Of a stretch of DNA of 64,000 bases, positions 11,084 through 63,621 are shown one piece after another. How positions within the stretch are numbered: position 1 is the first letter of the stretch; each line of letters starts with the position of its first letter. Where the stretch lies: NCBI GenBank assembly GCA_045598525.1, contig JAZLMH010000028.1:14725-78724 (forward strand), in the 5' to 3' direction. The notes under the pieces were generated by a model. That model was not told the origin of the DNA. It worked only from the letters and a program-made list of their open reading frames with translations, and made no database searches. The translations under genes were made by a program, and so were the position numbers. The stretch comes from Bacilli bacterium (lineage in GTDB: Bacteria; Bacillota_I; Bacilli_A; RFN20; CAG-826).

Positions 11084-12088
11084 ATGAAACACATCAATAA
11101 AGTATCTTTTATCGGAACAGGTGCTTGGGCTACGGCTCTGGCTAATGTCACATCATCTAACGGCATAGAAACCGTGATGTATGGCATCATCCCAAGCGAA
11201 GTTAATGAAATAAACGAAAAACACACAAACTCAAAATATCTTGGTGATATTGCGGTTAATCCTACTGTCAAGGCAACCCTTAACATTGAAGAGTCGGTAG
11301 AAAACGCTGACATCATTTGCATCGCCGTTCCTTCAACTGCAATCGCAACCGTCGTAAATCAAATCAAACATCACCTTAATAAAGACGTCATTATCCTTAA
11401 CGTCGCAAAAGGATTTGAGAAAACAACAAGGCTCACGATGGTTCAATATATCGAAACCATCATCAACAAAGATGACGTATTTGGCATTGTCTCTTTAGTG
11501 GGTCCTAGCTTTGCAGAAGAAGTAGCAAGCAAATCGCTAACCGCGGTTGTTGCATCGAGCGAGAACGAAGAAGCCGCTAAAATCGTCCAGCAAGCATTCT
11601 CAAATGACTGGATTCGCGTTTACACAAACACAGACGTCATAGGCGCATCGATTTGCTCATCCCTCAAAAACGTCATCGCTTTAGCTAGCGGCATCCTTTC
11701 CGGCTTAGATATGAAAGCAAACCCTCAAGCCGCTTTGATCACTAGAGGCATGGCGGAGATAACTCGTTTTGTCATCGCGATGGGTGGCAAACCTGAAACA
11801 TGTTTAGGCTTAACTGGCATCGGCGATCTCGTCTTAACGTGCACAAGCAAAACAAGTAGAAACTTCCAAGCAGGATACATGATTGCCAAATACGGTCTTG
11901 ACTACTTCAAGAAGAATTACGAAAAAACGGTTGAAGGCATATTTGCATGCGAAATTGCTAAAGAAATCGCAGAAGAAAAAGGAATATACGCTCCAATTGT
12001 TTGCTCAGTATACAATTCAGTGTTCTTAGGCAAATCTCCAAAAGAAGAAGTCTATCGTTTAATGAAGAACGCTCTTAAGAGCGAATAA
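11084..12088 (+). CDS. gpsA: NAD(P)H-dependent glycerol-3-phosphate dehydrogenase
   Basis: GTGAWATALA, 'GPSFAEEV', 'LKNVIALASG', 'GDLVLTC..SRN'. Confidence 0.95.
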   Translation: MKHINKVSFIGTGAWATALANVTSSNGIETVMYGIIPSEVNEINEKHTNSKYLGDIAVNPTVKATLNIEESVENADIICIAVPSTAIATVVNQIKHHLNKDVIILNVAKGFEKTTRLTMVQYIETIINKDDVFGIVSLVGPSFAEEVASKSLTAVVASSENEEAAKIVQQAFSNDWIRVYTNTDVIGASICSSLKNVIALASGILSGLDMKANPQAALITRGMAEITRFVIAMGGKPETCLGLTGIGDLVLTCTSKTSRNFQAGYMIAKYGLDYFKKNYEKTVEGIFACEIAKEIAEEKGIYAPIVCSVYNSVFLGKSPKEEVYRLMKNALKSE

Positions 12089-18138: not shown

Positions 18139-19272
18139 ATGGAAAGATCAGGAAAATTAATAAATAACCTTGGCGGCGAGTTAAGCTATCTATCTTTTAA
18201 ACCAACCCCACTTCAAGAGATCGTGATAGAGCAAGATCAGGAAATGATCGACCTTTTGATAAAAGCGTCATCGAAGATCGAGGCCCTGAACGCCATAACC
18301 GACCGTATTCCAAACAAAGACCTTTTTCTTGCCATGTATGTTAGGAAAGAAGCCCTTGTATCATCGCAAATAGAAGGAACGCAGTGCACACTAGAAGATT
18401 CTTTCGATCCGCATAACGAAAAGAATACAAACGCTGATATAAGCGAAGTCATCAATTACATAAAAGCGGTAGAGGCTTCAAAAGACCAATTAAATGATCT
18501 TCCTCTTTGCAACAGGCTAATAAAATTTGCCCACAAAGTGATGATGAACAATGTAAGAGGCAAAAACAAAACACCTGGAGAATATAGAAAAACACAAAAC
18601 TGGGTAGGAGGAACGTCCTTGGAAAACGCTAGGTATGTTCCGCCTAATGTAGAAGACATGAACATCGCCATGTCCGATTTAGAGAAATACATGAATGATG
18701 ATAACGGTTTAAATCCGTTAATAAAAACCGCTCTAATTCACTATCAATTTGAGACCATTCACCCATTCTTAGATGGAAACGGCAGAGTTGGAAGACTCTT
18801 GATTTCCTTATACCTCATGGATAAAGAAATAATCTCATCGCTTGTTCTGTATCCATCCTGTTATTTAAAAGTTAATCAAGTCGAATACTATGACCGCCTA
18901 ACCGAAGTCAGAAAGAAGGACGATTATGAGCAGTGGATCAAATTCTTCCTTGAAGGCTTATATGAAACCGCAAAAGACGCAATAGAAACGATTGACGAAT
19001 TAACAAAACTTCATGAAGAGACTCTAAGCTTATTCGATTCACTTTCTAGAACGAAAAAGAACAAAGCGATAGAAATCTTATCTTCTTTAGAAGAATGGCC
19101 TATAACTGACATCTATGGCCTCGCCAATAGAACCGGTCTTTCCTATATGAGCGTTGCTTCTTATGTCGATTATTTCCTTCAAAAAGGAATTCTTAAAATC
19201 TCTCATAGTGATGGCAAAAGAAGAATATACTTCTACGAAAAGTTCATAAGCATCATAAGAAAAGATACTTAA
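18139..19272 (+). CDS. Fic-family protein (class II, N-terminal autoinhibitory motif, probable C-terminal HTH)
   Basis: HPFLDGNGRVGR; SSQIEG. Confidence 0.92.
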   Translation: MERSGKLINNLGGELSYLSFKPTPLQEIVIEQDQEMIDLLIKASSKIEALNAITDRIPNKDLFLAMYVRKEALVSSQIEGTQCTLEDSFDPHNEKNTNADISEVINYIKAVEASKDQLNDLPLCNRLIKFAHKVMMNNVRGKNKTPGEYRKTQNWVGGTSLENARYVPPNVEDMNIAMSDLEKYMNDDNGLNPLIKTALIHYQFETIHPFLDGNGRVGRLLISLYLMDKEIISSLVLYPSCYLKVNQVEYYDRLTEVRKKDDYEQWIKFFLEGLYETAKDAIETIDELTKLHEETLSLFDSLSRTKKNKAIEILSSLEEWPITDIYGLANRTGLSYMSVASYVDYFLQKGILKISHSDGKRRIYFYEKFISIIRKDT

Positions 19273-19649
19273 ACGGCATATTTATTCATTTGGCAATTGC
19301 ATTAATCGCCATGCTTAATTCCGATTACTGTTAAAGATTCTCATAAACGTGTTGTTTTAAAAACAAGCATCCAAGACTACGAATTGGATGCGAAGAATTT
19401 CATAGAATCAATTTGGAAACAGAATCAAGATTAGTTCTTACTTCTTTGAATATGGTTATGCCAATGTTTTCCTAGGCTATATCCTGAGCCTGTTTTTTGT
19501 CATATAAAGACAATTCGCTGCATAAAAATTGCTTAGACAATAATAAACAAATGTTTATATTGCTTGAGAAACAATATAGAATTTAATGTATAAAATGTAT
19601 TGATAATACAAGAGGGTCTTATTTTTTGCCCGCCGAGAAAGGAGTTTTT

Positions 19650-21554
19650 ATGAAAAAGTTTCTCAAAACATTAACAATACTTGCCTTCCCTTTTATGATC
19701 GCTAGCTGCGCTAACGAAGGCGGAAACAGCAGTCCTGCTGATGAATCAAAACCAACATCTTCAATAACCTCGATTGCTGGTTCTTCTGCCCCAAGTGTTC
19801 AGTCAAGCCCAACTCATGTCCATAAATGGGACACTACCTGGTCTACTAACGGCACCCAGCATTATCACGCTTGCGCTGAATGTAATGAAAAGAATGATGC
19901 CGCTAACCACGAATGGGGCGAATGGAAGACTCAGAACTTAGGTACAAAGATTGACGATGCACGTTTCAATAACTCAAGCGTCAAATTTAGAGAATGCACA
20001 ACCTGCCATTACGAAGAGATTGATTCATCATTCGCAATGCTTCCAGAGATCAGATTCACATTCGATCCAACCGATCCAAACGCTAACTTCGCTACGGCTG
20101 CAAGAAGTACAGATGTCACTAGACCAAACGTTTCTGGAACCATCAGCATCACCAATGCTGGCGAATATAACACCACAGATCCTCTTGATGCCACAATGAA
20201 GGTCAGAGGAAACCAAACCGCTGGCTTCGACAAGAAGGGCTTACAGATCAAATTTGAAAAGAAACAGTCGATGCTTGGCCTCAATGGCGGTAACAAGTTT
20301 AAGAAGTGGGTCCTCTTAGCAGACGCTAAAGACACAACCATTTCAAGAACCGCTTTAGGTCTTACCATGTGTAAAGGCGTCGTCGCAGCAGACTCCAAAG
20401 TCTGGTACTCAGATTTCACACCTGTATCTGTCTATCTCAATAACACCTACTGGGGCATGTACATGCTTGCCGAACAAAAGGAAGTCAAGGATGGCAGAAT
20501 CAAACTCGCTGAGCCAGGAGAAGATACCTCAACAGAAATCGGATACAACTTCGAGCTTGACTACTACGCTAAGGACGAACCAGCCAAAGGCGCTGACGGT
20601 GATCCAACCTTCTCCATCAGCTATGGCAATTATTTCACAAAAAATAGCTTCAATATTGAAAACTGCTTAGCTAACTCAGGTTTAGGCGTTGTCACTACCT
20701 ACACCATGAACTCCGAAATCACAGATAGCACAGCTGGCGAAAACGCTCAGATCAATGATACCAACAGCCAGCAAATGAGCTTCATGAAAAATAGACTCCA
20801 GGCTTTATTCGGTGTTTTGGCTGAAGGTTCAAAGAATAGAGTTGCCAAAGACATTAACGCAAGCAACCAAGTTGTTAATGCCGCCAGTGGAACTACCGTT
20901 AGACAAGCCATCGAAAAGCACTTTGACCTCAATACTTGGGCAGAAGGCTTCATCATCAACGCAGTCTGCTTACCACCAGATGTAGGTTACTCTTCCTTCT
21001 ATTTGTCCTTTGACAACACTCCTACTGGAGACAAGAAGTTAAGATTCGACGTTCCATGGGATTTTGATAGCAACTTCGGTAACAGAAGAAACTTCATCGA
21101 AAAACCAGACGTTGCAAGCACAGGCAGTGGTTGGGGAGCACAATCCTATGACCCATATTTCATGGACAGAACCGCTAATATGTGGCTCCAGTTCTTAGGC
21201 AAGATGGATTGGTTCATGAACGACTATGTCAAACCAAAATGGAATGCCGCTAGAAACAACAACACCTTCGAGAACATGATCAGCTTAGCTAATACTTTCT
21301 ATAAGTATTACGATGGCGAATATGTTAAGAACTTCACCAAGTGGACAACCACCCAGGCCTCTGATAGCAATGTCAGCAGCTACTTCAATGGTGACGGTGT
21401 CAATAGTGGTGAGCTCAGAAAACCATTCGTCAACGTTAACGAACGCAAAGACGCACAGAAAGAAACCATCAACTGGTTGGCTAAACGTGTCAATTATCTC
21501 GAGAACAGATGGGTTTCAAATAGCACAAGAACTCCTCTTGCAACCATCAAATAA
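19650..21554 (+). CDS. CotH-kinase-family lipoprotein
   Basis: RBS AAGGAG; lipobox MIASC; His/Cys-rich segment; 'KVRGN', 'KKWVLLA', 'YWGMYMLAEQ', 'PWDFD'. Confidence 0.75.
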   Translation: MKKFLKTLTILAFPFMIASCANEGGNSSPADESKPTSSITSIAGSSAPSVQSSPTHVHKWDTTWSTNGTQHYHACAECNEKNDAANHEWGEWKTQNLGTKIDDARFNNSSVKFRECTTCHYEEIDSSFAMLPEIRFTFDPTDPNANFATAARSTDVTRPNVSGTISITNAGEYNTTDPLDATMKVRGNQTAGFDKKGLQIKFEKKQSMLGLNGGNKFKKWVLLADAKDTTISRTALGLTMCKGVVAADSKVWYSDFTPVSVYLNNTYWGMYMLAEQKEVKDGRIKLAEPGEDTSTEIGYNFELDYYAKDEPAKGADGDPTFSISYGNYFTKNSFNIENCLANSGLGVVTTYTMNSEITDSTAGENAQINDTNSQQMSFMKNRLQALFGVLAEGSKNRVAKDINASNQVVNAASGTTVRQAIEKHFDLNTWAEGFIINAVCLPPDVGYSSFYLSFDNTPTGDKKLRFDVPWDFDSNFGNRRNFIEKPDVASTGSGWGAQSYDPYFMDRTANMWLQFLGKMDWFMNDYVKPKWNAARNNNTFENMISLANTFYKYYDGEYVKNFTKWTTTQASDSNVSSYFNGDGVNSGELRKPFVNVNERKDAQKETINWLAKRVNYLENRWVSNSTRTPLATIK

Positions 21555-21570
21555 TCTCGACAAATAAATA

Positions 21571-21636
21571 ATTAAAACCCCCTCGTCCTGAAATGTACCC
21601 CTAATCCTGGACAAATCTAGGAAAGGGGGTTTTAAT
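21571..21636. terminator. Bidirectional terminator hairpin with an IS3-end-like sequence in the loop
   Basis: attaaaaccccct...agggggttttaat between convergent genes. Confidence 0.6.
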
Positions 21637-21660
21637 ACTAACGACGCCAGTTGAATAAGT

Positions 21661-21936
21661 TTATTTCTTCGTTATGATGTCTTTTTGCATATCCTTACTC
21701 GCTTTTAAATAACCAGCAAGCACAGATTCGTAATATTTCTTATACTCTTCGTTCTTGATCTTCTTTAGATTCTTTTCAAGCATCAACGCCTCTCTAGAAG
21801 AATCGGCAATCTGCATGTTATTTTCTAATTTATAGGCAACAACATTCTTAACGACATCCATTCTCTTTTCGAATAGTTCGATGATCTTGTTATCAATCTC
21901 ATCGATCTTGTTTCTGCATTCAATAAGCTTGTCCAT
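21661..21936 (-). CDS. Chorismate mutase (AroQ type II, stand-alone)
   Basis: 'CRNKIDEIDNKIIELFEKRM', 'YKLENN', 'DSSRE', 'SKDMQ'. Confidence 0.88.
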   Translation of the reverse strand: MDKLIECRNKIDEIDNKIIELFEKRMDVVKNVVAYKLENNMQIADSSREALMLEKNLKKIKNEEYKKYYESVLAGYLKASKDMQKDIITKK

Positions 21937-21953
21937 AACAAAATTCTCCGAAA

Positions 21954-23426
21954 TTACATGAGGATGGATCCTAATGGGTATCCAATAACTAAAGCAATGA
22001 CCACGCTGATAACCATAAGAAGTGACCCATATATCAATACATCTTTAGTGTCGCAGTAATCACTTCCCGCGACAATTGCGATATGAGGCATAGAAGGAGG
22101 GGTGGCAAACGCAAATGATGCAAGCATGCCAATAATACTAGCAACAGCAGGAACGCTTAATGTTGATGAAGTTGCGATAAGGATGGATGCTGCAACGGTG
22201 CTAACCAATGTCGCAGTGACCATATTAGAAGAAAGGTTGGTCTGTAATGCTGCCCAGAAGGCAAAGATGATAAGAAGGGCGATAGCAGGCAATGATGATA
22301 ATGAAGAGCTTAAGTTGTTCTGAAGGAAGGCTTTGATACCGATTGCGTTATCAGTTAAAGCCGCACCAAGAACAAGAGTTGCTGCGCACATCATAAGAGC
22401 AGTCCAAGGAACGCCATTCTTAAACGCGTCATCAAGGGTGATGATAGGTTTGCCATCAAATTTGATGATGCATAAGAGAAGAACTCCTAAGATTGGAGGC
22501 ATAGCCGTGCCGTATTTGTTAATTGCATCATAGAATTCTGGAGCGCCATCTTTGAAGAAAGAAGGAACGATCCAAAGAAGAATGACAAAGGCGAAGATTG
22601 AAAGAATCGCTATTTCTTTCTTTGTGATTTTTGAACTTTGTTCTGTCTCATTACTAACGCTTACGGAATCCTTTGATAAGGTAGATGTATCAACATTGCT
22701 TAATTTAGAAACGTCAGGTCTAACGATGAATCTGAAAGCAAGAAGCATCAAAACGAATGTAATCAAGCCAACAGGGATAGCCATGCCCATATAGGCAAGA
22801 GGAGAAACATTAACATTTGCGGCGTTCATTGCAAGAACTGGGAAAACGTGAGCGATAGGGGTCATGCCACTAGAAATGGATACGGTAAACCCTAAGCCCA
22901 TCATAAGGACCTTTGCAACCTTATCGTCTTTTTCAATGCCAGCGATTGCAAACACTTCATTAAGAATTGGAAAGATGATAACGAAGAGAACGCTTGGAGA
23001 AATAAATAAGCCAAGGACAAGAACCGCTAGTAAGAATAGTGCGATAAACCAGTTTCCGCTCTTTTTCGCTAGTTTGGTAGAAATAAACCATATAGCGACC
23101 CTTCTAATAAGCGAGGTCTTTGATAAGGCATATGTGCAGATAAACGTAAACAATAAGAAAATGAATGTCGCATTACCAAAAGACTTAGATAATGCGGAAT
23201 TAAATCCAATATTTTCTAAGAACGCTAGAGCGAAGATACAAAGAAGAGATGGCCAATCGATGCCGATCGTGAGCCATAAGATAAGTGATCCAATGAATAT
23301 GGAAATAACGCCCATCGCATCGCTTGATAAACCTTCTGGCCCTGGAATGAATCTTCCAAAAAAGCACAAGGCAATGCAGATAGGGATAATGATCAATCTA
23401 TATATTTTGTTATCCTTCAATTTCAT
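21954..23426 (-). CDS. SLC13/DASS-family anion:Na+ symporter
   Basis: About 13 hydrophobic segments; 'GMTPIAH', 'TNLSSN', 'AFATPPSMP'; ATGA overlap with the upstream U32 gene. Confidence 0.8.
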   Translation of the reverse strand: MKLKDNKIYRLIIIPICIALCFFGRFIPGPEGLSSDAMGVISIFIGSLILWLTIGIDWPSLLCIFALAFLENIGFNSALSKSFGNATFIFLLFTFICTYALSKTSLIRRVAIWFISTKLAKKSGNWFIALFLLAVLVLGLFISPSVLFVIIFPILNEVFAIAGIEKDDKVAKVLMMGLGFTVSISSGMTPIAHVFPVLAMNAANVNVSPLAYMGMAIPVGLITFVLMLLAFRFIVRPDVSKLSNVDTSTLSKDSVSVSNETEQSSKITKKEIAILSIFAFVILLWIVPSFFKDGAPEFYDAINKYGTAMPPILGVLLLCIIKFDGKPIITLDDAFKNGVPWTALMMCAATLVLGAALTDNAIGIKAFLQNNLSSSLSSLPAIALLIIFAFWAALQTNLSSNMVTATLVSTVAASILIATSSTLSVPAVASIIGMLASFAFATPPSMPHIAIVAGSDYCDTKDVLIYGSLLMVISVVIALVIGYPLGSILM

Positions 23427-24643
23427 TTTGCTACTTTCCTTCTTAATATATCGTTCTTCTTTAATGGGATATCTGTTTCGATGGTGAAGTGGTCATTGAT
23501 TTTGTTTATGACCTCAACGGCATCGCCATTTTTATCTTTGACCTTATCGACAACGAACGTTTCGTTGAAATGTTCGCTTGGGGATAAGACTTCAAGAGTC
23601 TCGCCTTTGAAGAATCTGTTTCTGACGCGCACAAGAGCTTTGCCATCTTTTGAATCTTCGAGAACAATCGCGATGAACTCATAATCCTGTGTGTACTGCG
23701 ATGATTCGATATAAGTCTTCTTATCGTCCCCGAAGTAGAATCCTGTGGTGAATGGCCTATGGCTTGTCTTCTCTAATTCGGCAACATAATCGAATGGAGC
23801 AGGGGAAGAAGATAAATATGCATCGATCGCTCTTCTATAAGCGTTAACGACTGTCGCAACATAATAAGAAGACTTCATTCTGCCTTCGATCTTAAATGAA
23901 GAGATGCCTGCTTCAACAAGCTCACCGATATGATCGGCTAAGCACATGTCTTTGCTATTGAGGATATATGTTCCTCTCTCGTCTTCTTCGATTGGGTAAT
24001 ATCCAGGAACGTTATTTCTTGTATCTAATGAATGAAGGGCAAAGTTCCATCTGCATGGTTGAATGCATTCGCCTTTGTTCGAATCTCTTCCGACGAAGTA
24101 ATTTGATAACTGGCATCTTCCTGAATAGGAGATGCACATTGCCCCATGGCAGAAGCATTCGATATCAATATCTTCACCGACGGCGTCTTTAATTTCTCTA
24201 ATCTCGTTAACTGATAATTCTCTTGCTAAAACAAGGCGTTTCGCACCTAAAGCCACCCACACTAAAGCGGATTCTTTGTTTGTGATATTTGCCTGAGTTG
24301 ATACATGGAGTTCTAGTGAAGTGTGTTTTTTCACCAATGAAGCAACGCCTAAATCAGAAACGATAACCGCATCAACCCCAATGGAATCAAGTTCCTTCAA
24401 ATAGATAAGCACCCCATCCATATCCTCGTTATGAGCAAGGATATTGACTGTGACGTATAACTTAACCCCGTTTTCGTGGCATAAAGAAACGGCTTCCTTG
24501 ATGCCGTCGATATCAAAGTTCGTGCCATACGCTCTAAGACCAAACTTCTTTCCGCCAAGATAAACTGCGTCAGCTTTGAAATAAATCGCGGTCAATAAAC
24601 TTTCTTTGTCGCCAACAGGGGCTAATAACTCTAATTTCTTCAC
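23423..24643 (-). CDS. U32-family protein, TrhP/YegQ-like (tRNA hydroxylation)
   Basis: 'ELLAPVG', 'HVSTQ', 'HGAMCISYSGRC', 'CIQPCR', 'KIEGRMKS'; short form with U32 C-terminal domain; GTG start 24643 inferred. Confidence 0.85.
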   Translation of the reverse strand: MKKLELLAPVGDKESLLTAIYFKADAVYLGGKKFGLRAYGTNFDIDGIKEAVSLCHENGVKLYVTVNILAHNEDMDGVLIYLKELDSIGVDAVIVSDLGVASLVKKHTSLELHVSTQANITNKESALVWVALGAKRLVLARELSVNEIREIKDAVGEDIDIECFCHGAMCISYSGRCQLSNYFVGRDSNKGECIQPCRWNFALHSLDTRNNVPGYYPIEEDERGTYILNSKDMCLADHIGELVEAGISSFKIEGRMKSSYYVATVVNAYRRAIDAYLSSSPAPFDYVAELEKTSHRPFTTGFYFGDDKKTYIESSQYTQDYEFIAIVLEDSKDGKALVRVRNRFFKGETLEVLSPSEHFNETFVVDKVKDKNGDAVEVINKINDHFTIETDIPLKKNDILRRKVAK

Positions 24644-24693
24644 GCTTAATATAATACCCATAAATGAACTTAAATGATAATATAACTAAAGTT

Positions 24694-26937
24694 ATGAGTG
24701 AGTTATTGTCCCCAGCAGGAAACCTTGAATCCTTCTATCTAGCAATCAAGAACGGCGCTGATGCCATATATTTGGGGTTAGATAAATTTAGCGCAAGAGC
24801 ATACGCTTCTAATTTCAGCATCGACTCACTCAAAGATTTAGTGACATATGCTCATCTTAGAAACGTCAAAATATATGTCACGATAAACACGATCATCTAT
24901 GGCCATGAACTTCCTGAAGTCTATAAGACCATCGATGAACTTGCCTCAATCTATGTTGACGGCATAATTGCCCAAGATCTTGCGGTCATTAATTACATAA
25001 CAAACACATATAGATCCATATACGCTCACGCATCAACCCAACTTGGCATTGATGACATATATGGAGCAGAGCTTTGCAAAGACTTAACCGTAAATCGTGT
25101 GGTTTTTGCTAGGGAAACCAGCTTAGAAACGATGAAGAACATCAAAGATAAGCTTGGTATTGAAGTGGAAGCTTTCATCCATGGAGCCTTATGCGTCTCA
25201 TATTCAGGCAACTGCTTTATGTCGAGTGCAATCGGCGAAAGAAGCGGTAACCGCGGAAGATGCGCTGGATGCTGCAGAAAGCTTTATACTCTTGTAGACA
25301 CAAAAACAAAAGAAGAAATAAAAACAGGATACCTTCTTTCGATGAAGGATCTTAATGTATCAAGTAGCCTCAAAGACTTCTCTTTCGTTGATTCCCTTAA
25401 GATCGAAGGAAGAATGAAAGAGCCTTTCTATGTCGGAAGCGTGACTAAATACTATAGAGACGTCCTTGATAAGAAATACCCAGATAGGGACACTCTGAAT
25501 AAAGTGTTCAACCGCACATACACAAAAGGCTATATCCTTGGTGAAGATAAAGAAAATATCACAAACATCGATAGACCAAACAACTTCGGCTTTCCAATCG
25601 GTAAGGTGGAACGTGCTTTCAAAAACAAAATAATGATTAGATTATCTTCGCCTCTTAACAAAGGCGATCAGATTAGAATCGAATCAAAGAACCCAGGAGA
25701 AGAAATCTCGCTCGCGGTAACCAGGCTCTTCGACGCCTCTTTTAATGTCGTTGAATCATCAAAGAGATTGTGCGTCGTCGATTGCAATAAATGGGTCGAG
25801 ATAGGCGCTAACGTATATAAAACCAAAGACAGTGAATTCGTAACTAGAGCAGAAAAAGAATTAGAGCAAAACGAGAAGAAACTCGAGATCGATGTAAGAT
25901 TCGTCGCGAAATTAAATGAAAAGATGTCACTTCGCCTTAGATATAAGAAACATGAAGTTACAGTTTCATCTAACTACGTCGTCACTAAAGCAACAAACAA
26001 GGCGACCACCAAAGAAAACGTATATAACCAGCTTAATAGAATTAACGACACCCCATATAAGATCGGTAATATCAGAATCGAACTTGATGAGAACGTTTTC
26101 CTTCCCGTCTCTTCAATCAACGACATGAGAAGAGAAGCAATAGAGAAACTCAATGAAGCAAGACTCGACAATGAAGTCATATATAACGACTCGCCAGATA
26201 GAATCATTCCTAAGAAGCATGAGCTAATAACTCCGGAAATAACTGTAGAAGTTAATAACGAGGTTCAATACGAAGCCGCTAAAGAATGCGGAATCAAACA
26301 TATATACTTCAAAAATAAGATTAGAAGAAACCACGATACATATAAAAAACTAGATGGAGAAGTCCTTGTCGGAGGTTTAGGCGGAGTTAAGTACTATAAG
26401 GGCACAAACACTCTAGTTAGTGATGCATCTCTTAATGTCGTTAACCATAAAACCGCGGCAATCCTTTCATCTTTAGGCGTGGAAAGAATCACCCTTTCAG
26501 AAGAAATCAACAAATCATCAATCAACGCTCTTGTTGATAACTATTTCGAAGAATATGGAACATATCCAAATCTTGAGCTAATCGTATATGGAAGAAGCAA
26601 GATCATGCATTCTCTTTATTGTCCGCTTAAGCGTTTAGGGATGTGTGGCAAATGCAAACAAAGCAATTTTGCCTTAAAAGATGAATACGCTTCATTCCCA
26701 CTCCAGTTCAATGAAGACTGCACAATCAACCTTCTTAACTCAAAGATCACCAACATCATGGATAATCTTGATGACATAAGGGGAGTGAACTATTTCCGTT
26801 TAGTGTTCACAACCGAAGACAAAGAAACAGTAAGAAACGTCATAGAATCATTTAAAGAGAAACTTGAAGGAAGCACCGAAAGACTCTTTAACGAAGAAAC
26901 AGACACTAGAGGCCATTTCTTTAAGAACCCTTTATAA
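24694..26937 (+). CDS. U32-family protein, long RlhA/YdcP-like form with DUF3656 (23S rRNA hydroxylation)
   Basis: 'ELLSPAG', 'HASTQ', 'HGALCVSYSGNC', 'SGNRGRCAGCCR', 'KIEGRMK', 'PVSSINDMRR'; ATG 24694. Confidence 0.85.
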   Translation: MSELLSPAGNLESFYLAIKNGADAIYLGLDKFSARAYASNFSIDSLKDLVTYAHLRNVKIYVTINTIIYGHELPEVYKTIDELASIYVDGIIAQDLAVINYITNTYRSIYAHASTQLGIDDIYGAELCKDLTVNRVVFARETSLETMKNIKDKLGIEVEAFIHGALCVSYSGNCFMSSAIGERSGNRGRCAGCCRKLYTLVDTKTKEEIKTGYLLSMKDLNVSSSLKDFSFVDSLKIEGRMKEPFYVGSVTKYYRDVLDKKYPDRDTLNKVFNRTYTKGYILGEDKENITNIDRPNNFGFPIGKVERAFKNKIMIRLSSPLNKGDQIRIESKNPGEEISLAVTRLFDASFNVVESSKRLCVVDCNKWVEIGANVYKTKDSEFVTRAEKELEQNEKKLEIDVRFVAKLNEKMSLRLRYKKHEVTVSSNYVVTKATNKATTKENVYNQLNRINDTPYKIGNIRIELDENVFLPVSSINDMRREAIEKLNEARLDNEVIYNDSPDRIIPKKHELITPEITVEVNNEVQYEAAKECGIKHIYFKNKIRRNHDTYKKLDGEVLVGGLGGVKYYKGTNTLVSDASLNVVNHKTAAILSSLGVERITLSEEINKSSINALVDNYFEEYGTYPNLELIVYGRSKIMHSLYCPLKRLGMCGKCKQSNFALKDEYASFPLQFNEDCTINLLNSKITNIMDNLDDIRGVNYFRLVFTTEDKETVRNVIESFKEKLEGSTERLFNEETDTRGHFFKNPL

Positions 26938-27198
26938 CCAATAGGCGTTTTAATTAAAACATAAAATCAAAATCGTGGTTTCAAAGCAATAATCTGAACT
27001 GTCGCTTGGTTTTTCTAGCACACCTTATCAAGCCTTCAGTCCCAAAATATAATCAAACGCGTAGACGAAAAGAAATACGGGCATTGGGAAACAATAGACA
27101 CATATGCTTAAGAGGAGATAGTCCACACTCTTTTCTGACTCATTTTTTGTTATCGTTATTCGACTAGGCAAGTTATTCTAATAATAGGAAAAAAAGGA

Positions 27199-27618
27199 AT
27201 GATGATTATGGATGAAAGATTAATTAGTGATATTTGTGCTAGCTATTCCGTTCCATCGATATATATTTGTGAGCTTTTAGCAGAAAAAGATGGAATCGCT
27301 GATAATATGACTCCCGAAGAAATTGATGCGTTTGGGAAGAAATGCCACGCAATCGGAGAAGAGATTATCTCTAACGTCTATAGCCTCTGCGCAATGGATA
27401 ATTTTGATCAAGACGATTATTACGGAGCAAAGATGGCTGTCTTAGACAAAAGAAAACTATGTGCTTACTTCGTAAATAATGACAGCGAAACAGTAAAGAA
27501 AGATTTTAAGAAATACCAAGAGTCATATGATGGAAAATACGCTCTTGAGCATTTCTTCATGAGTATCGACGATGCGCTTGATGAAAAAAGCTTCGCCCAG
27601 TATTCTCCTTGGTATTAA
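27199..27618 (+). CDS. Hypothetical acidic protein
   Basis: 139-aa ORF with a purine-rich upstream region and a downstream terminator. Confidence 0.6.
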   Translation: MMIMDERLISDICASYSVPSIYICELLAEKDGIADNMTPEEIDAFGKKCHAIGEEIISNVYSLCAMDNFDQDDYYGAKMAVLDKRKLCAYFVNNDSETVKKDFKKYQESYDGKYALEHFFMSIDDALDEKSFAQYSPWY

Positions 27619-27701
27619 TAGAAAGAAATGAAAAGCGCCCCAATAAAAACAATCGGGGTGTTTTTTTTGATATAAACATCTAGTGATGGTATATTAGAAA
27701 C

Positions 27702-29090
27702 ATGAAAAAACGTTCGTTTGTCATTCTTTCTTTAACGCTCTTCTCGCTTTGCTCATGCGGAAAAGAATCTTCCGAGAGTGTTTTAAGTAGCAGTGAAACA
27801 ACAGAAGAACCGATAACAAACAAAACTTTATTAGATAAAAAAGCAAAAGAATTCCAGAATCTTGCAGATCACTGCGTTTACGATTTCGACCCAACCTCGG
27901 TTGAAATGTCAAAAAGAACAAACCCTGATGGAAGCGAATTGACCGCAAACGATATTAGAGAACTCACGAAATCAATTAAAAGCATAGACGAAACAAGAAC
28001 AAAAGAAGGCAAAGAAATCCATGTTTGCTATAGTTTTGAAGGCGTTTATGCGGAAGGTTTTAATGGAGACTACGCAATTCATAAAGCAAAGGCCGTGCTT
28101 TATGAAGATGGCTTATCTTTCTTTGAAAGAAATGGCGTCACAAGCGGTGGAGTCTGGTGGAAAGAATCTGACACAGTCCATATAAGCACAACAAGAAGTG
28201 GCAAAATAATTGAAACAGAATCACGCGAGATTGACGGCGAGTTATATCTGCCTATTCCTAACATCAACCCTTATAACGACTCACTAAGAACTATTGATGT
28301 AAGAGGCGGTTACTATTACCCAGTGATCGGCATCTTCATCGAAGACATAAGATTACAAAAAGAAGTTTCGGCCGATGATGTTTTCTATAAGACTCCAATA
28401 GGCGAAGAATGCCCAGTATATGTAATAGATAAAAGCCTCAATTATTATCCTATCAACAGCTTTGATGACAAACTTAAATTCCTTCATCTTCCAGAATGGA
28501 ATTACCCTCATGATGATGAATACGTAGCAGAATATAAAGGCATGACCGCAATATATAACGTCAAGGTTCTTCCTTCGAAAAGGAACTATAGTCTTAACTC
28601 AACCGAATTAACGGGTAAGACATTCCCTTTATATACGTTTGATTATCTTAAATACATAGAAGCATCAAGCGCCGACGATGTAGCGTTTAACTACAAAATC
28701 AAAGGCAATGAGCTTCATACGTATTTGAATCCAAAAACAGATGAACTTACAACCTTCCTTCCTAATGGAAGGCTAGAAAGAACAAACATCAGCTTCAACT
28801 ATAGCGAAGAAGACAATCATTTTGATGTAATTTATAAAGGCAACGAATTTGGTTTCACTTTCAAATCCCAAGATTCCCTGGAAATAAGCTTAGGAGATAA
28901 AAAAGAGACCCTCAAAATCGGGCTATCTCACGAATTTAAAAATTATCTTCCATATGTCACTATAACCGATCATGATCATAACCACGAAGGATGCTTAATG
29001 GATCAGCTCCCTGAATCATTAGATCTTTATAATTCTAGGGGCGTATTAGCTGCGGTGATTAAGAGCAGCGACAATCAAGTAAAGCATTAA
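27702..29090 (+). CDS. Hypothetical lipoprotein
   Basis: Lipobox LCSC, Ser/Glu linker; extended -10 lies 6 nt upstream of ATG. Confidence 0.7.
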   Translation: MKKRSFVILSLTLFSLCSCGKESSESVLSSSETTEEPITNKTLLDKKAKEFQNLADHCVYDFDPTSVEMSKRTNPDGSELTANDIRELTKSIKSIDETRTKEGKEIHVCYSFEGVYAEGFNGDYAIHKAKAVLYEDGLSFFERNGVTSGGVWWKESDTVHISTTRSGKIIETESREIDGELYLPIPNINPYNDSLRTIDVRGGYYYPVIGIFIEDIRLQKEVSADDVFYKTPIGEECPVYVIDKSLNYYPINSFDDKLKFLHLPEWNYPHDDEYVAEYKGMTAIYNVKVLPSKRNYSLNSTELTGKTFPLYTFDYLKYIEASSADDVAFNYKIKGNELHTYLNPKTDELTTFLPNGRLERTNISFNYSEEDNHFDVIYKGNEFGFTFKSQDSLEISLGDKKETLKIGLSHEFKNYLPYVTITDHDHNHEGCLMDQLPESLDLYNSRGVLAAVIKSSDNQVKH

Positions 29091-29123: not shown

Positions 29124-29531
29124 TTAGCCAACAATTTCTCTTGCGAACTTTTTGATCTTCTCAAGATCTTCTTTGTTTGGTCTGCCCTTATTCATAGGCC
29201 CAAACGATCCTTTACAAGCGAAGTTCTTTTCATCAAGAAGAACACCGTTCTTTTCGCAAGCTTTCTTAACGCCTGCATATGTTGATTTCAAAATCGCGGC
29301 AGTGGAGAAGTTAACGACCTTGCCAATCTTATCCTTGTTGTCTTTGATATATTTCTTAACCTCGCCAACAAGATGAGCGGCATATACAGAACTACCTAAG
29401 AACAAAATATCAACCTTCTCTTCTAAAGGAGCGTCAATTGATTTAGCTTCAATGTTTAATTCTTCCGCAATCGCGTCTGCTAATTTCTTAGTGTTGCCAC
29501 CCTTTGTGTAATATCTAATAGCAATATTCAT
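29124..29531 (-). CDS. Flavodoxin-like protein
   Basis: 'YYTKGGNTKKLADAIA', 'LFLGSSVY', 'GRPNKEDL'. Confidence 0.85.
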   Translation of the reverse strand: MNIAIRYYTKGGNTKKLADAIAEELNIEAKSIDAPLEEKVDILFLGSSVYAAHLVGEVKKYIKDNKDKIGKVVNFSTAAILKSTYAGVKKACEKNGVLLDEKNFACKGSFGPMNKGRPNKEDLEKIKKFAREIVG

Positions 29532-29699
29532 ATTTAAATATCTCTTTTCGTTACTTAAATTATCTATGTCAAAAATTGCTACTTCAAGTACAAATAAGAG
29601 ATACATGGCTCTAAATATTCAGCGTCTGATAACGTTTATTTCGTTGCTAAGTTATAAAACTGCAAGAACTTGCAAAAATTTTAGTTAGGCGGTCTAAAT

Positions 29700-30950
29700 A
29701 TGATTAAGAGAAATATATATTTGCAAAAATTAATAGATCGAATGGATAACGGAATGATAAAAGTCATAACCGGTATTAGAAGATGTGGAAAATCATTTTT
29801 GCTTTTTGAGATTTTTTATAATTATTTAATAGATAATGGAGTGGATAAGTCTCATATAATCACATTGCAGTTAGACGATAGACTTAACATCAAATATCGT
29901 GACCCTGATTGTCTATGCGAATATATACACAGCAAAATCATTGATAACAAAAAGTACTATATATTATTAGACGAAGTTCAATTCGTAAAAGAATTTGAGG
30001 ATGTTTTAAATTCGTTTTTGCATATAAAAAATGTCGATGTGTATGTAACAGGAAGCAATGCAAAATTCCTTTCTAAAGATATCATCACTGAATTCAGAGG
30101 AAGAGGAGACCAAATCTATCTATCGCCTCTGTCTTTCAAAGAATACTTTGATTATTGCAAATTGGATTTTGATGAGGCCTGGAAGGAGTATTCGACTTAT
30201 GGTGGAATGCCATATTTGCTAAAATGCAAAACAGAAGCGCAAAAAATTGAATATTTAGAAAACCTGTTCAAAGAGACATATATAAAAGATATCGTGAACA
30301 GAAATAACTTAAAAAATACCGAGGTTCTTGAGGATTTGTTAAATATTATATCTTCAAGTGTAGGGTCTTTGACAAACCCTAACAAGCTTTCAAACTGTTT
30401 TGAAATGATTAAGAAAGTGGTTGTTGCGCCAAACACTATCAAACAATATTTAGACTACTGTGTTGATTCTTTTTTAATTCAAAAAGCGTATAGATATGAC
30501 GTTAAAGGCAAGCATTATATAGAAACTCCTTTGAAATACTATTTCACAGACATTGGGCTTAGGAATGTTAGGCTGGGTTTTAGGCAACAAGATGAAAGTC
30601 ACTTGATGGAAAACATAATTTATAACGAATTAATCACACATGGTTATAAGGTAGATGTTGGAGTGGTAGAAGTAAGCGAAAAAAATGAGAACAACAACTA
30701 TGTTAGAAAAAAACTAGAAGTAGATTTTATCTGCAACTTTGGATATGAGAGATATTATATTCAATCCGCTTTAAACGTAGATTCCGCCTCAAAAAAAGAA
30801 CAAGAGGAAAAATCACTATTGAACACAAATGATAGCTTCAGAAAAATAATTATTGTCAAAGATAATATTAAAAAATGGAAAGATGAAAAAGGTGTTCTGA
30901 TTCTTGGACTAAAAGAATTCCTAAATAACCCAAAATCAATAGAATCATAA
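29700..30950 (+). CDS. AAA_14 ATPase with DUF4143 C-terminal domain
   Basis: Walker A GIRRCGKS, Walker B ILLDEVQ, 'VTGSN', 'KYYFTDIGLRN', 'EVDF'. Confidence 0.9.
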   Translation: MIKRNIYLQKLIDRMDNGMIKVITGIRRCGKSFLLFEIFYNYLIDNGVDKSHIITLQLDDRLNIKYRDPDCLCEYIHSKIIDNKKYYILLDEVQFVKEFEDVLNSFLHIKNVDVYVTGSNAKFLSKDIITEFRGRGDQIYLSPLSFKEYFDYCKLDFDEAWKEYSTYGGMPYLLKCKTEAQKIEYLENLFKETYIKDIVNRNNLKNTEVLEDLLNIISSSVGSLTNPNKLSNCFEMIKKVVVAPNTIKQYLDYCVDSFLIQKAYRYDVKGKHYIETPLKYYFTDIGLRNVRLGFRQQDESHLMENIIYNELITHGYKVDVGVVEVSEKNENNNYVRKKLEVDFICNFGYERYYIQSALNVDSASKKEQEEKSLLNTNDSFRKIIIVKDNIKKWKDEKGVLILGLKEFLNNPKSIES

Positions 30951-48759: not shown

Positions 48760-50661
48760 ATGGAAGAAAGCAGCAAAGTCAAAGTTAGTTTTAGACAGCT
48801 CAAGATGTTTATCTTCGCAATCGTAGATATCGTCATCATTCTTGCGTCTTACATCGCAGGTTATATCATCCAAACAAACGCAATTGACTTAGCGGGTGCG
48901 TTATTCGCAACTGCCGTCACAGTATTGCACTTGGTCGTTTTCACAATCTTTGGTGGATACCGTATCATCACCGATGAATTTAGTTTAACTGACGCGATAA
49001 GATTCAGTGTCCTTGTACTCTTGCAAAACATTGTCGCGGTCCTTTGCAATAGATTCATCCCAGTAGTCACAGACCTTCACCCATTAATCTTCATTTTCAT
49101 CGCAGCCTTCCAGTTAATCTTCATGGTTGCGTCCCGCACTCTTCAAAGAGCGGTCAGGTTCTATACAACAAACACAAAGGACACTGTTCCAACAATCGTC
49201 GTTGGTTCTGGTTCATGTGCTGCTCTTGCATATAACGAAGCCCATAAGAATGAAGAATTCCATAACAACGTCGTTTGCTTTATGGATGATGACCCAAGCA
49301 AGATCGGCAAAAGATTCTTAGGCAAACCAGTCTATGGTCCAATTGAAAACATTCACAAATACATTGAGAAATACAAAGCCCAAGAAGTCATCATCGCTAT
49401 TTCAAAAATCGACAAAGTCGGTTTAAAGCGAATTATTAAGATTTTGAAGAACGAAGAAGTAAAGGTTACTCGAATGCCTATTATTTCTGAACAACAAGAT
49501 CCAACCAAGCCAGAGAAGATGAAAATCAAAGAAGTCTCTCTGGCTGAACTTTTAGGTAGAGACCAAATCACATTCGACACCGCTCAGATTGCAGACTGGT
49601 TAAAAGGCAAACGCGTTCTCTTAACAGGCGCAGGTGGAAGTATTGGCTCCGAACTTGCTAGACAACTCTATTCATTCGGTGTCAAACAACTTGTCATGTT
49701 TGATATCTACGAGAACGCTTTATACAACATCCAAATGGAATTAACCCGCAAAATCAAAGCGGATGAATCTCCAATCGAACTCATCACCCTTATTGGATCA
49801 ACCTACAACGAATTCCGCGTTGAAGAGCTCTTCTCTAAATATCATCCAGAAGTTGTCTTCCACGCTGCAGCATATAAACATGTCCCTCTTATGGAAGACT
49901 CGCCAGTAGAAGCGATCAGAACAAACTGCCTTGGTACATGGAATGTCGCTAAGATGGCAGACAAATACGGTGTTGAAAAGATGGTCTTAGTCTCAACTGA
50001 CAAAGCCGTTAGACCGACAAACACCATGGGCGCCACCAAAGCGTTCGCTGAAATGATCATCCGATACTGGAACAATAGAAGTGAAAATACAAAATACTCT
50101 GCAGTCCGCTTCGGTAACGTTCTTGGTTCAAATGGCTCAGTCATCCCGTTATTCAGACAACAAATTAAAGAAGGTGGGCCAGTTACAGTCACTCACCCTG
50201 AAATCATTCGTTTCTTTATGACCATCCCTGAAGCAGTATCCCTCATTCTCCAATCAGGTGCGTTTGCGGATGGTGGAGAAATCTTCATCCTTGATATGGG
50301 TCAACCAGTTAAGATCCTCACCCTTGCAGAAAATGTCATCAGACAATGTGGGTTTAAACCATACAAAGATATCGAAATCACCTTCACAGGTCTTAGACCA
50401 GGCGAAAAACTCTTTGAAGAATTGTTGCTTGATGTCACAAAGAACAAAAAGACAAGCAACTCAAAGATCTACATCGAAGAACCAAAGAAAATCCTTCCTA
50501 TGGATGAGAAGATTGAATACATCTCTAAAGTCTTTAACATGACAAACAACCATGAAATTAAAGAATGTTTAAGAGAAGTAGTCACAAGTTACACAAACTA
50601 TATTGACTTCAATCAGAAAGCTCAGCGTGAGAAGGAAATGAAAGAAGAAGATAAAATCTGA
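48760..50661 (+). CDS. CapD/PglF-type nucleoside-diphosphate sugar epimerase/dehydratase
   Basis: 4 TM; 'TGAGGSIGSEL', 'HAAAYKHVPLME', 'STDKAV', 'RFGNVLGS.GSV', 'GLRPGEKL'. Confidence 0.93.
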   Translation: MEESSKVKVSFRQLKMFIFAIVDIVIILASYIAGYIIQTNAIDLAGALFATAVTVLHLVVFTIFGGYRIITDEFSLTDAIRFSVLVLLQNIVAVLCNRFIPVVTDLHPLIFIFIAAFQLIFMVASRTLQRAVRFYTTNTKDTVPTIVVGSGSCAALAYNEAHKNEEFHNNVVCFMDDDPSKIGKRFLGKPVYGPIENIHKYIEKYKAQEVIIAISKIDKVGLKRIIKILKNEEVKVTRMPIISEQQDPTKPEKMKIKEVSLAELLGRDQITFDTAQIADWLKGKRVLLTGAGGSIGSELARQLYSFGVKQLVMFDIYENALYNIQMELTRKIKADESPIELITLIGSTYNEFRVEELFSKYHPEVVFHAAAYKHVPLMEDSPVEAIRTNCLGTWNVAKMADKYGVEKMVLVSTDKAVRPTNTMGATKAFAEMIIRYWNNRSENTKYSAVRFGNVLGSNGSVIPLFRQQIKEGGPVTVTHPEIIRFFMTIPEAVSLILQSGAFADGGEIFILDMGQPVKILTLAENVIRQCGFKPYKDIEITFTGLRPGEKLFEELLLDVTKNKKTSNSKIYIEEPKKILPMDEKIEYISKVFNMTNNHEIKECLREVVTSYTNYIDFNQKAQREKEMKEEDKI

Positions 50662-50805
50662 CGTTCATTTGAATAAACCACCCCATATAAAAGGCAGGCG
50701 TGTATTGAAATCTTGAAAAGCGGTTAGATTTTCCCGAGCGGGAGATACACAAAATAAAAAATAAAAAACGGACAGAGGTCCGAGAGAAATAAAGAGGTAA
50801 AAGAG

Positions 50806-51477
50806 ATGAATTTCTTAGTGGTGGTAGCACATCCTGACGATGAAGTTTTAGGGGCAGGTGCGACAATTCATAAATTGATAGCTGAAGGGCATAATGTGGC
50901 TGTTGCTACAATGGCTAATCACGCCGCTGCTAGAGCAAATATTTCTGACACTCTTGTTGATGACCAGTCTAAAGCAATGGAGATAATGGGTGTCAAAAAG
51001 GTTTACAGTGCTGATTTTCCAAACATCAAAATGAACACTGTGCCTCATCTTGATTTGGTTCAATTTGTTGAAAAATGCATCATGGATTTTGGTGCCGATG
51101 CAATTATCACCCACCATCCATCCGATACGAATAATGACCATGTTCAAACTTCATATGCAGTTCAAGCTGCTTGTAGATTATTCCAGAGAAGAGAAGACGT
51201 TCCAATTTTGAAAGAGTTATTGTATATGGAAGTTCCGTCATCAACGGAGTGGTCGTTCGATTCTTCTGCCAATAGATTCACCCCTAATTATTTTGTCGAA
51301 ATCGGTAAAGATGGTGTTGGAATAAAGTTAGAAGCCTTAAAAGCTTATAAGGGTGTCATGAGGCCTTATCCACATCCAAGAAGCGATGAAGCTATTAAAG
51401 CTTTAGCTGCATATAGGGGAGCTCAAGCCGGATGTAACTATGCAGAAGCCTTTGAATGCGTATTTAGGAGAGTGTGA
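50806..51477 (+). CDS. PIG-L/LmbE-family deacetylase
   Basis: 'AHPDDEVLGAG', 'D.NNDH', 'PHPRS', 'AEAF'. Confidence 0.9.
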   Translation: MNFLVVVAHPDDEVLGAGATIHKLIAEGHNVAVATMANHAAARANISDTLVDDQSKAMEIMGVKKVYSADFPNIKMNTVPHLDLVQFVEKCIMDFGADAIITHHPSDTNNDHVQTSYAVQAACRLFQRREDVPILKELLYMEVPSSTEWSFDSSANRFTPNYFVEIGKDGVGIKLEALKAYKGVMRPYPHPRSDEAIKALAAYRGAQAGCNYAEAFECVFRRV

Positions 51478-51479
51478 TA

Positions 51480-52148
51480 ATGTATAAGTTCTTTAAAAGA
51501 CTTATTGATATAGTTTTATCATTTTTCGGTATTTTAATTTCCTCTCCAATTTGGGTTATTGTGATAATTGGAATTCTTATTTCTGATTTCGGTCCTATCT
51601 TCTATATCGCTAAAAGAATCGGTAAAGACGATAAGGAATTTAAGATGTATAAATTTAGATCTATGAGAGTCCTAAAAGAACCTAAAAAAGGATCTGAAGC
51701 ATCTCTTAGACCTGAAACAGACAGAATCTTCCCTTGGGGTAAAGTAATAAGAAAATTAAAACTTGATGAGCTTCCTCAATTGATCAACATCTTTAATGGA
51801 ACAATGTCTATCGTTGGCCCTAGGCCTGTAGCAAAAGATCAATTCGAGATTTTTAGATCCGGAAAATATGATGAGGCTAAAGTTGTGAGACCTGGTTTGA
51901 CTGGTCCAGCTGCATTATATGACTACATATATGGCGACCAATTTGAAGAAGCAAACGTTGAAGAATATGAAGAAAAGGTTTTGCCAACAAGAAGAGAATT
52001 AGAACTTATTTATGTAAAGAAAATCGGATTCTTTTTCGACGTGTGGATGTTCTTTCAAACTGCAGGATGTGTTGTTTGCGGTTTATTTGGAATAGAAAAT
52101 AAAAAGTTTTTAGATAAATTAATCAGGATGGCTGAGGAGAATAAGTAA
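51480..52148 (+). CDS. Initiating phosphoglycosyl (sugar) transferase
   Basis: 'KRLIDI', 'YKFRSM', 'LDELPQLIN', 'MSIVGPRP', 'RPGLTG'. Confidence 0.92.
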   Translation: MYKFFKRLIDIVLSFFGILISSPIWVIVIIGILISDFGPIFYIAKRIGKDDKEFKMYKFRSMRVLKEPKKGSEASLRPETDRIFPWGKVIRKLKLDELPQLINIFNGTMSIVGPRPVAKDQFEIFRSGKYDEAKVVRPGLTGPAALYDYIYGDQFEEANVEEYEEKVLPTRRELELIYVKKIGFFFDVWMFFQTAGCVVCGLFGIENKKFLDKLIRMAEENK

Positions 52149-52975: not shown

Positions 52976-52976
52976 T

Positions 52977-54137: not shown

Positions 54138-54139
54138 TT

Positions 54140-54664: not shown

Positions 54665-54682
54665 AAATAAAAAAGGCAAATT

Positions 54683-55978: not shown

Positions 55979-55982
55979 TATC

Positions 55983-56837: not shown

Positions 56838-56850
56838 GGATCTATTGTTT

Positions 56851-58606: not shown

Positions 58607-58608
58607 AA

Positions 58609-61147: not shown

Positions 61148-61507
61148 AGAGATAAATAGCATTATATAAAACAATACCATCAATATTCCCCAGAAAGTTA
61201 AGTCGCTGCATTTGTTAATATAAAACTAGACCACATATGTGTATGCATAAAAGATAACCATCCGAGAAAATGGATGAATATGCGAAGTCTCGAATATATA
61301 TATAAAAAGCAAATTATGTGCTGTTGGATATCGAAAATCCCGGACCACGTATTATATATAATATAGAGAATGTTAAAATGGTCCAAAAATTTGACCAATA
61401 TAGATGATGCTACCCCTTTTAAACGGGTAGCCTTCCCTTCAAAGCTTATGTTGCTTTCAAAGGTTTTGAAGAGAAGCGGTGAGTTAAGTGAACGAAAGGA
61501 GAAATGA

Positions 61508-63620: not shown

Positions 63621-63621
63621 C

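Follow-up and report, generated by a model that had tools for sequence, protein, structure and literature searches.

Within a 64,000-nt window of contig JAZLMH010000028.1 (assembly GCA_045598525.1), to which all coordinates refer, positions 21661-26937 hold four genes that encode two U32-family proteins, a permease of the DASS family and an AroQ-class chorismate mutase. A first-pass annotation made from the sequence alone had proposed that the permease imports chorismate, or prephenate, and that the mutase supplies prephenate as a co-substrate for RNA hydroxylation. We followed up this proposal by comparative genomics. The features of the stretch are:

21661-21936, minus strand: AroQ chorismate mutase, 91 amino acids; PF01817, 67.2 bits
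21954-23426, minus strand: DASS permease, 490 amino acids; PF00939, 93.7 bits
23423-24661, minus strand: short U32 protein, 412 amino acids by the longest open reading frame; PF01136, 298.7 bits, and PF16325 (U32_C), 68.2 bits
24664-26937, plus strand: long U32 protein, 757 amino acids by the longest open reading frame; PF01136, 249.6 bits in two stretches, and DUF3656 (PF12392), 94.6 bits
24644-24693: divergent spacer of 50 bp separating the U32 genes, where both promoters presumably lie
21571-21636, both strands: long GC-rich hairpin with U-rich tails on either side, between a convergent CotH-like gene and aroQ

Open reading frames, Pfam matches and NCBIfam matches agree on the four genes, which lie where the first-pass annotation had placed them, and its account of the junctions held as well. 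The stop codon of the short U32 gene overlaps the start codon of the permease gene (TCAT at 23423-23426, which is ATGA on the minus strand), and 17 bp (21937-21953) separate the permease gene from aroQ; both junctions were read directly from the sequence. The longest open reading frames leave only 2 bp between the divergent U32 genes. Conservation among homologues begins at E11 of the short protein and E13 of the long one, and the genes probably start at GTG 24643 and ATG 24694, respectively, giving the 50-bp spacer that had been reported. This spacer contains one promoter-like match (minus strand, 24680-24651) in a scan that overall returned 10 matches compared to 16.1 expected from shuffled sequences. 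At the other end of the operon, the hairpin has a folding energy of -34.1 kcal/mol on the minus strand (z = -4.07) and -26.6 kcal/mol on the plus strand (z = -4.29), and probably acts as a terminator in both directions at the end of the U32-DASS-AroQ operon; a simple terminator scan made no call there, the loop being too long for it. A search for riboswitches and other RNA elements found no Rfam family at E ≤ 0.1 within 20000-28000.

Conservation of the permease-mutase cassette

To place the module among its relatives, we scanned one genome per species for the permease, which returned 70 DASS loci, and used the four window proteins as phmmer queries on these. Adjacency of AroQ was counted only where 300 bp or more of sequence follow DASS, as they do in 64 loci. 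AroQ lay directly downstream of DASS on the same strand in 61 of these 64, an arrangement far beyond chance, and the DASS-AroQ pair is a conserved cassette. The remaining six loci end too early to assess, and two of them show the start of AroQ. The short U32 gene was directly upstream of DASS in 40 of 61 assessable loci, so that the synteny of the permease, which the earlier proposal had left to be checked, is conserved. The second U32 gene, hereafter RlhA-like, was present in 19 of the 70 loci.

The linkage between DASS and AroQ spans 45-90% DASS identity and is found in every major clade of a midpoint-rooted DASS tree (67 sequences, with fragments shorter than 400 amino acids left out). In 14 loci without an adjacent short U32 gene, the flanks were mostly unrelated: DASS was shared by 14/14 and AroQ by 10/14, and no other cluster occurred in more than 4 loci. 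The 70 loci come from animal and human gut metagenome-assembled genomes (MAGs) with record titles of Bacilli, Mollicutes, Candidatus Onthovivens, Clostridium sp. CAG:288, Clostridia and Christensenella, several of which are clearly unreliable bin labels. In two loci, L071 and L073, from MAGs titled 'Mycoplasmataceae' (genomes G197 and G199), the DASS and U32 frames are broken by TGA codons only. This pattern suggests that TGA is recoded to tryptophan in this lineage, and the cassette would thus extend to a recoded lineage, L071 having AroQ.

Chorismate synthesis in the source genome and its relatives

The first-pass annotation had raised the possibility that the host lacks the shikimate pathway. 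Profile searches of the whole source genome (G000; 1.37 Mb in 47 contigs, 85% complete, 1.85% contaminated) found no chorismate synthase (PF01264), no member of the 5-enolpyruvylshikimate-3-phosphate (EPSP) synthase/MurA family (PF00275), no dehydroquinate synthase (PF01761), no prephenate dehydratase (PDT; PF00800) and no chorismate-binding enzyme (PF00425). The N-terminal domain of prephenate dehydrogenase (PDH) gave 23.5 bits, below cut-off, at window positions 11291-11410 (G000:C28:26015-26134) within a 353-residue open frame; this match is probably another NAD-binding dehydrogenase. We also searched the source genome by tblastn with every protein encoded in the aro operon of G130, a relative from the same family. 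The genes of this operon, named by Pfam, encode 3-deoxy-D-arabino-heptulosonate-7-phosphate (DAHP) synthase, dehydroquinate synthase, a type II dehydroquinase, a shikimate dehydrogenase/kinase fusion, EPSP synthase, chorismate synthase, PDH and a fusion of chorismate mutase and PDT (CM-PDT). The search was blank at E ≤ 1e-5, save for the chorismate mutase domain, which matched AroQ. A complete shikimate pathway together with a permease lacking conserved synteny had been named in advance as grounds for abandoning the proposal; what we found was conserved synteny and a genome with no aroC, aroA, aroB or PDT and a PDH match below cut-off. Judged by its gene content, the source organism is predicted to be unable to make chorismate.

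By contrast, the genome does have a chorismate mutase, and AroQ appears to be the only one: no second CM_2 domain (PF01817) and no CM_1/AroH-type domain (PF07736) was found in it. AroQ scores 84.6 bits against TIGR01805 ('CM_mono_grmpos'; cut-off 71.2) and 31.1 bits against the isochorismate lyase model NF005475, below its cut-off of 126. The protein matches the chorismate mutase of PDB entry 1ybz and is without an N-terminal signal-like segment. Residues R8, R25, K36, D45, R48, E49 and S80, the presumed equivalents of active-site residues of E. coli chorismate mutase, are each kept by 95% or more of 60 DASS-linked AroQ sequences. On these matches AroQ is a stand-alone AroQ-class chorismate mutase, predicted to convert chorismate to prephenate. 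In one lineage (L038 and G076; G076:C8:48516-49405) a tandem pair of AroQ genes follows DASS. Searches of the source genome for another consumer of chorismate or prephenate (PDT, PDH, CmoA or a chorismate-binding enzyme) found none. Because the cell has a mutase and no chorismate synthase, its chorismate would have to come from outside.

We then examined gene content in 50 of the 69 locus genomes, a set made up of all 24 that lack an adjacent short U32 gene or are otherwise odd and 26 ordinary ones. Chorismate synthase (aroC) was found in 1 of the 50, and that genome carries L064, a locus without AroQ; U32 proteins were found in 48. The co-occurrence of this DASS subfamily with U32 and AroQ in genomes lacking aroC, suggested earlier as a check on the proposal, was therefore borne out. 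Since 49 of the 50 other carriers lack aroC and five carrier genomes that are 95-98% complete lack PDT (0/5), incompleteness of the source assembly is not the cause of the absent pathway. PF00275 was found in 1 of these five genomes; its absence from the source genome and the other four fits a wall-less, Mollicutes-like lifestyle. Related records are titled 'Mollicutes' or 'Bacilli', and the lineage may belong to the RF39 group.

A sample of 151 genomes drawn evenly from the order, the source genome included, was searched with four queries and cross-tabulated by hand. DASS was found in 9, U32 in 69, CM_2 over cut-off in 53 and aroC in 45. Among the CM_2-positive genomes, 44 have aroC and 9 do not, and coordinates place the mutase beside DASS in all 9 of the latter. 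Similarly, every one of the 9 DASS genomes has U32 and chorismate mutase and lacks aroC. None of the 45 genomes with aroC has DASS, and no mutase was found in the 97 genomes that have neither aroC nor DASS. Taking families f1 and f3 together, U32 proteins occur in 10 of 82 genomes (source genome included), 9 of which have the cassette and 1 of which (G130) has the aro operon. Within the genus of the source organism, the module is present in just 1 of 11 other genomes, so that it comes and goes as a unit.

Relatives in which the pathway survives point to a possible origin of this arrangement. In G130, the RlhA-like gene heads a run whose later members are pheA (CM-PDT) and the aro genes. G044 and G098 each have a stand-alone AroQ, about 40% identical to the window protein, that diverges from an RlhA-like gene, and in G044 an aro operon lies a few kb from this pair. 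Across the aroC-positive relatives (loci L088, L089 and L090), the RlhA-like gene is an immediate neighbour of either the mutase or the aro operon. Most simply, the aro genes would have disappeared and a carrier would have come to occupy their position beside mutase and hydroxylase.

The carrier and its predicted cargo

The permease scores 93.7 bits against PF00939, above the gathering score of 27, and is also matched by the Pfam family CitMHS; against TIGR00785 it scores 121.4 bits, below the cut-off of 198.6. These scores assign it to a divergent branch of the DASS family. The closest solved sequence is VcINDY (E = 2e-19). An AlphaFold model of the permease (predicted local distance difference test 78.1, predicted template modelling score 0.75) was matched by Foldseek to INDY, NaDC3, VcINDY and AtDiT2.1 with query-normalised TM-scores of up to 0.77 at 16-19% identity, and the model has a VcINDY/SLC13-type fold. 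More broadly, VcINDY and the other DASS/SLC13 carriers NaDC3, NaCT, Drosophila INDY, AtDiT2.1 and LaINDY share this predicted fold (query-normalised TM-score 0.75-0.77, probability 1.00), the match to PF00939 and the expectation of a dicarboxylate cargo. The permease differs from them in its low identity, its score below the TIGR00785 cut-off and its hairpin motifs. In VcINDY, SNT motifs at the hairpin tips presumably bind Na+ and carboxylate; a HMMER alignment to VcINDY places S-P-S at the first of these and S-N-M at the second, so that neither SNT motif is intact. It also differs in gene context, an orphan chorismate mutase and U32 genes, and in its predicted cargo, a cyclohexadienyl dicarboxylate that no matched structure carries.

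Relatives of this protein are numerous and sparsely annotated. Among the candidates scored, 829 matched at E ≤ 0.001, many of them about 480 amino acids long and from gut metagenomes. The few that are named are all called 'anion permease', and a Protein Atlas search returned generically named DASS clusters only. This nomenclature, the CitMHS match and the relatedness of the genomes to each other would fit an ordinary di-/tricarboxylate or anion carrier whose position beside AroQ is inherited gene order with no functional link. We rate that explanation as highly improbable, since adjacency is kept down to about 45-50% identity, amid unrelated flanks, under varied record titles and in a TGA-recoded MAG. 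DASS is moreover absent from all 45 aroC-positive genomes, and the mutase from all 97 genomes without aroC and DASS.

The mutase's only conserved neighbour is a dicarboxylate-type carrier and no other consumer was found, which is why we read the permease as a chorismate importer. Both cargo and direction of transport are what we infer from this context: the protein is predicted to import chorismate and may take prephenate too. Uptake of prephenate-like compounds is physiologically possible, because E. coli pheA tyrA mutants had more ubiquinone when prephenate was supplied in the medium, as described in a passage of PMC10990095.

This result also bears on whether the cargo could be prephenate itself, or both compounds without preference, with AroQ kept only in reserve for chorismate that enters alongside. 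The two compounds are isomeric dicarboxylates, prephenate supplied from outside evidently works in E. coli, and 18 relatives that keep U32 proteins without a mutase (described below) suggest direct acquisition of prephenate. With such a cargo the mutase would be dispensable, yet it lies downstream of DASS in 61 of 64 loci, is duplicated in tandem in L038 and G076 and has conserved residues. We consider this alternative unlikely, and the retention of the mutase argues that chorismate, not prephenate alone, is the predicted cargo.

Transport of shikimate-pathway intermediates across membranes has precedent. E. coli ShiA is a shikimate permease, and plants have EDS5. The latter is described in a passage of PMC11416591 as a presumed isochorismate transporter. 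Both move an intermediate of the pathway across a membrane; they belong to other transporter families and have other substrates and another physiological purpose. A full-text literature search turned up neither a bacterial transporter of chorismate or prephenate nor a link between U32 proteins and a carrier, the transporter phrase occurring only in plant and yeast work; excerpts of a paper on exported chorismate mutase (PMC10520331) name no chorismate carrier. The search thus agreed with the first-pass annotation, which knew of no characterised chorismate transporter of the DASS type. The parts are known families; the novelty lies in the specificity predicted for the carrier and in the way the module would work, salvaging a shikimate intermediate solely as a co-substrate for RNA hydroxylation.

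The U32 proteins and the proposed fate of prephenate

The long U32 protein has U32 and DUF3656 domains together and a second, weak U32 stretch at residues 551-739. Its cysteine motif is C177-x6-C184-x15-C200-x3-C204. Co-occurrence of U32 and DUF3656, with an optional second U32 domain, is stated to be unique to RlhA in a passage of PMC5727448, and CX6CX15CX3C is the motif described for U32 Fe-S hydroxylases in one of PMC11574389. By domain content, the long protein is assigned the RlhA architecture (U32, DUF3656 and second U32), and its most likely target is C2501 of 23S rRNA. It resembles RlhA (YdcP) in these domains and in the cysteine motif; its gene accompanies the cassette in 19 of 70 loci only. 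On this count the earlier proposal needs correcting, as the cassette's constant companion is the short U32 protein and not the RlhA-like one.

The short U32 protein has, as TrhP does, a U32 plus U32_C architecture with a four-cysteine motif; its own cysteines are C176-x6-C183-x15-C199-x3-C203, all conserved. Among curated models it matches that of TrhP (NF011996) best. Both TrhP (YegQ) and the TrhP1/TrhP2 (YrrN/YrrO) system of B. subtilis, which acts with TrmR, depend on prephenate according to passages in PMC6599085. The short protein is like them in its domains and best model. It is unlike them in scoring 327 versus 534 bits and in being single-subunit, without a TrhP1-like partner; by score, it also falls into another class than the TrhP2-like proteins found in relatives. 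Its most likely target is a pyrimidine of tRNA or rRNA, and 5-hydroxyuridine at position 34 (ho5U34) left unalkylated is a possible product. The first-pass assignment to TrhP and tRNA ho5U34 therefore stands as regards architecture; the score and the lack of downstream enzymes, given below, make 'tRNA ho5U34' the weakest part of the reading. ARAGORN identified 44 tRNA genes in the source genome, with CGG and UGG as the only proline anticodons and no GGG in this incomplete assembly. A tRNA-Ile(UAU) is present and there is only one CAU tRNA, indicating that the set is incomplete.

RlhA, TrhP and UbiU/V require prephenate, according to passages in PMC5727448, PMC6599085 and PMC10990095, and in ubiquinone hydroxylation by UbiU/V prephenate is the oxygen donor (PMC10990095). 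Passages in PMC10990095 and PMC11574389 also state that direct evidence for prephenate use by the U32 family is lacking. Excerpts of the literature on prephenate-dependent U32 enzymes treat endogenous prephenate only. Both U32 proteins and AroQ look functional here, to judge from the conserved catalytic-type residues and the CX6CX15CX3C motif.

These observations lead us to a model in which the divergent DASS protein would import chorismate shed by other gut microbes, and may take prephenate as well. Cytoplasmic AroQ would turn the imported chorismate into prephenate, and the two [4Fe-4S] U32 enzymes would spend it on O2-independent RNA hydroxylation. The short U32-DASS-AroQ operon and the divergent RlhA-like gene would then constitute a salvage module for prephenate as an oxygen-donor co-substrate. 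E. coli offers a parallel, in that mutase-made prephenate serves U32 Fe-S proteins there too. In E. coli the aro pathway provides chorismate to the mutase domains of PheA and TyrA, which make the prephenate, whereas in the source genome we found no shikimate pathway and only a stand-alone, apparently dedicated mutase, without PDT or PDH, and chorismate would have to enter from outside through the linked carrier. Import of chorismate, conversion to prephenate and use by U32 hydroxylases is the best reading of the module; it is supported by comparative genomics and we regard it as probable. The pathway loss, the cassette linkage and the co-occurrence with U32 bear out this part of the first-pass annotation, while the transported substrate is still something we infer.

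The salvaged chorismate might have a different use. The cassette could serve phenylalanine supply, through a spontaneous or unknown conversion of prephenate to phenylpyruvate, or an unrecognised prephenate-dependent enzyme. Consistent with such a purpose, 21 of 61 loci lack a directly upstream short U32 gene, the 14 compared flanks are unrelated, and 2 of the 50 carrier genomes showed no U32 protein. We nonetheless consider it distinctly improbable: neither PDT, PDH, CmoA nor a chorismate-binding enzyme was found in the source genome, PDT is absent from all five near-complete carriers, and U32 proteins occur in 48 of 50 carriers compared to 1 of 73 cassette-free genomes of f1 and f3.

Several findings weigh against the proposed salvage of chorismate for RNA hydroxylation. 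The coupling ion and the substrate of the carrier are not readable from homology, because its first SNT motif aligns to S-P-S and its identity to solved structures is 16-19%; all the solved DASS relatives that it matched carry small aliphatic di-/tricarboxylates, sulfate or phosphate. Three DASS relatives (L064, L066 and L073) are without AroQ, two of which, L064 and L066, form a long-branched sister pair in the DASS tree. The two carriers without a U32 protein are bins of 1.0 and 0.7 Mb, and the source genome is itself only 85% complete. The genomes share ancestry, and identical coordinates show that 6 or more of the 50 carriers recur in the order sample, so that our counts overstate the number of independent events. 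As for the U32 proteins, the short one falls below the TrhP cut-off (327.1 bits versus 534), none of the 9 order-sample genomes with the cassette, the source genome included, gave a match to a TrmR-type methyltransferase (PF01596), and CmoA (TIGR00740) was not found in the source genome, in which CmoB was not searched for. Finally, 18 of the 151 relatives, from families f2 and f5 and 77-97% complete, have U32 proteins and no aroC, CM_2, CM_1 or DASS, from which it follows that U32 enzymes can persist without the module.

These 18 relatives carry TrhP1/P2-like pairs and RlhA-like genes, and a TrmR-type methyltransferase is present in 11 of 11 f2 genomes. An AroH-type mutase as a hidden source of prephenate was discarded, PF07736 being found in 0 of 19 genomes (the source genome and the 18 exceptions). 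A different supply module near their U32 genes was likewise discarded: 12 TrhP-type and 11 RlhA-type neighbourhoods revealed no conserved transporter or mutase. Their neighbours are housekeeping genes (UvrA, Lgt, a TrxB-like protein, ThyA/DHFR and an oligopeptide-binding protein) and, in G037, Bflower, Zn-ribbon, HAD and ECF-S proteins. Either these relatives import prephenate by an unrecognised route or their U32 enzymes use another donor.

We lean, if only slightly, towards a stronger statement of the model, namely that the DASS protein, working with its dedicated AroQ, is the first bacterial chorismate importer and that chorismate acts as a vitamin-like oxygen donor, with U32 RNA hydroxylation as its sole use, in genome-reduced, shikimate-deficient gut bacteria. 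If this is true, chorismate, a labile intermediate, would be a cross-fed public good in gut communities and the basis of a new type of metabolic dependency among their members. 5-Hydroxycytidine (ho5C) or ho5U-type marks would be worth a private supply line after loss of the whole aro pathway. A large unannotated DASS subfamily would have a substrate and bacteria a first candidate chorismate carrier, and the still unproven family-wide use of prephenate by U32 proteins would gain independent support from comparative genomics.

The U32-DASS-AroQ operon is one of few exceptions in a window in which nearly all long open reading frames lie on the plus strand. The gene adjoining it downstream of aroQ encodes a CotH kinase-like protein of 642 amino acids (19626-21554, plus strand); in the closest relative, L006 (79% identity), a CotH-like gene is also adjacent, on the opposite side of the module. 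Nearby lies a gene for a Fic-family protein with Fic_N and Fic domains (18139-19272, plus strand). Beyond the long U32 gene, two plus-strand open reading frames (27199-27618, 139 amino acids; 27702-29090, 462 amino acids) are matched by neither Pfam nor NCBIfam and have no equivalent among the 70 related loci. They are followed by a short flavodoxin-like gene (29124-29606, minus strand) and a gene for an AAA_14/DUF4143 ATPase (29700-30950, plus strand). The flavodoxin was considered as a conserved redox partner and rejected, as it was found in no related locus. Toward the end of the window (about 50000-64000), the GC skew rises from slightly negative to about +0.2, and past about 52 kb the G+C content drops to 0.30-0.33, compared to about 0.38 before.

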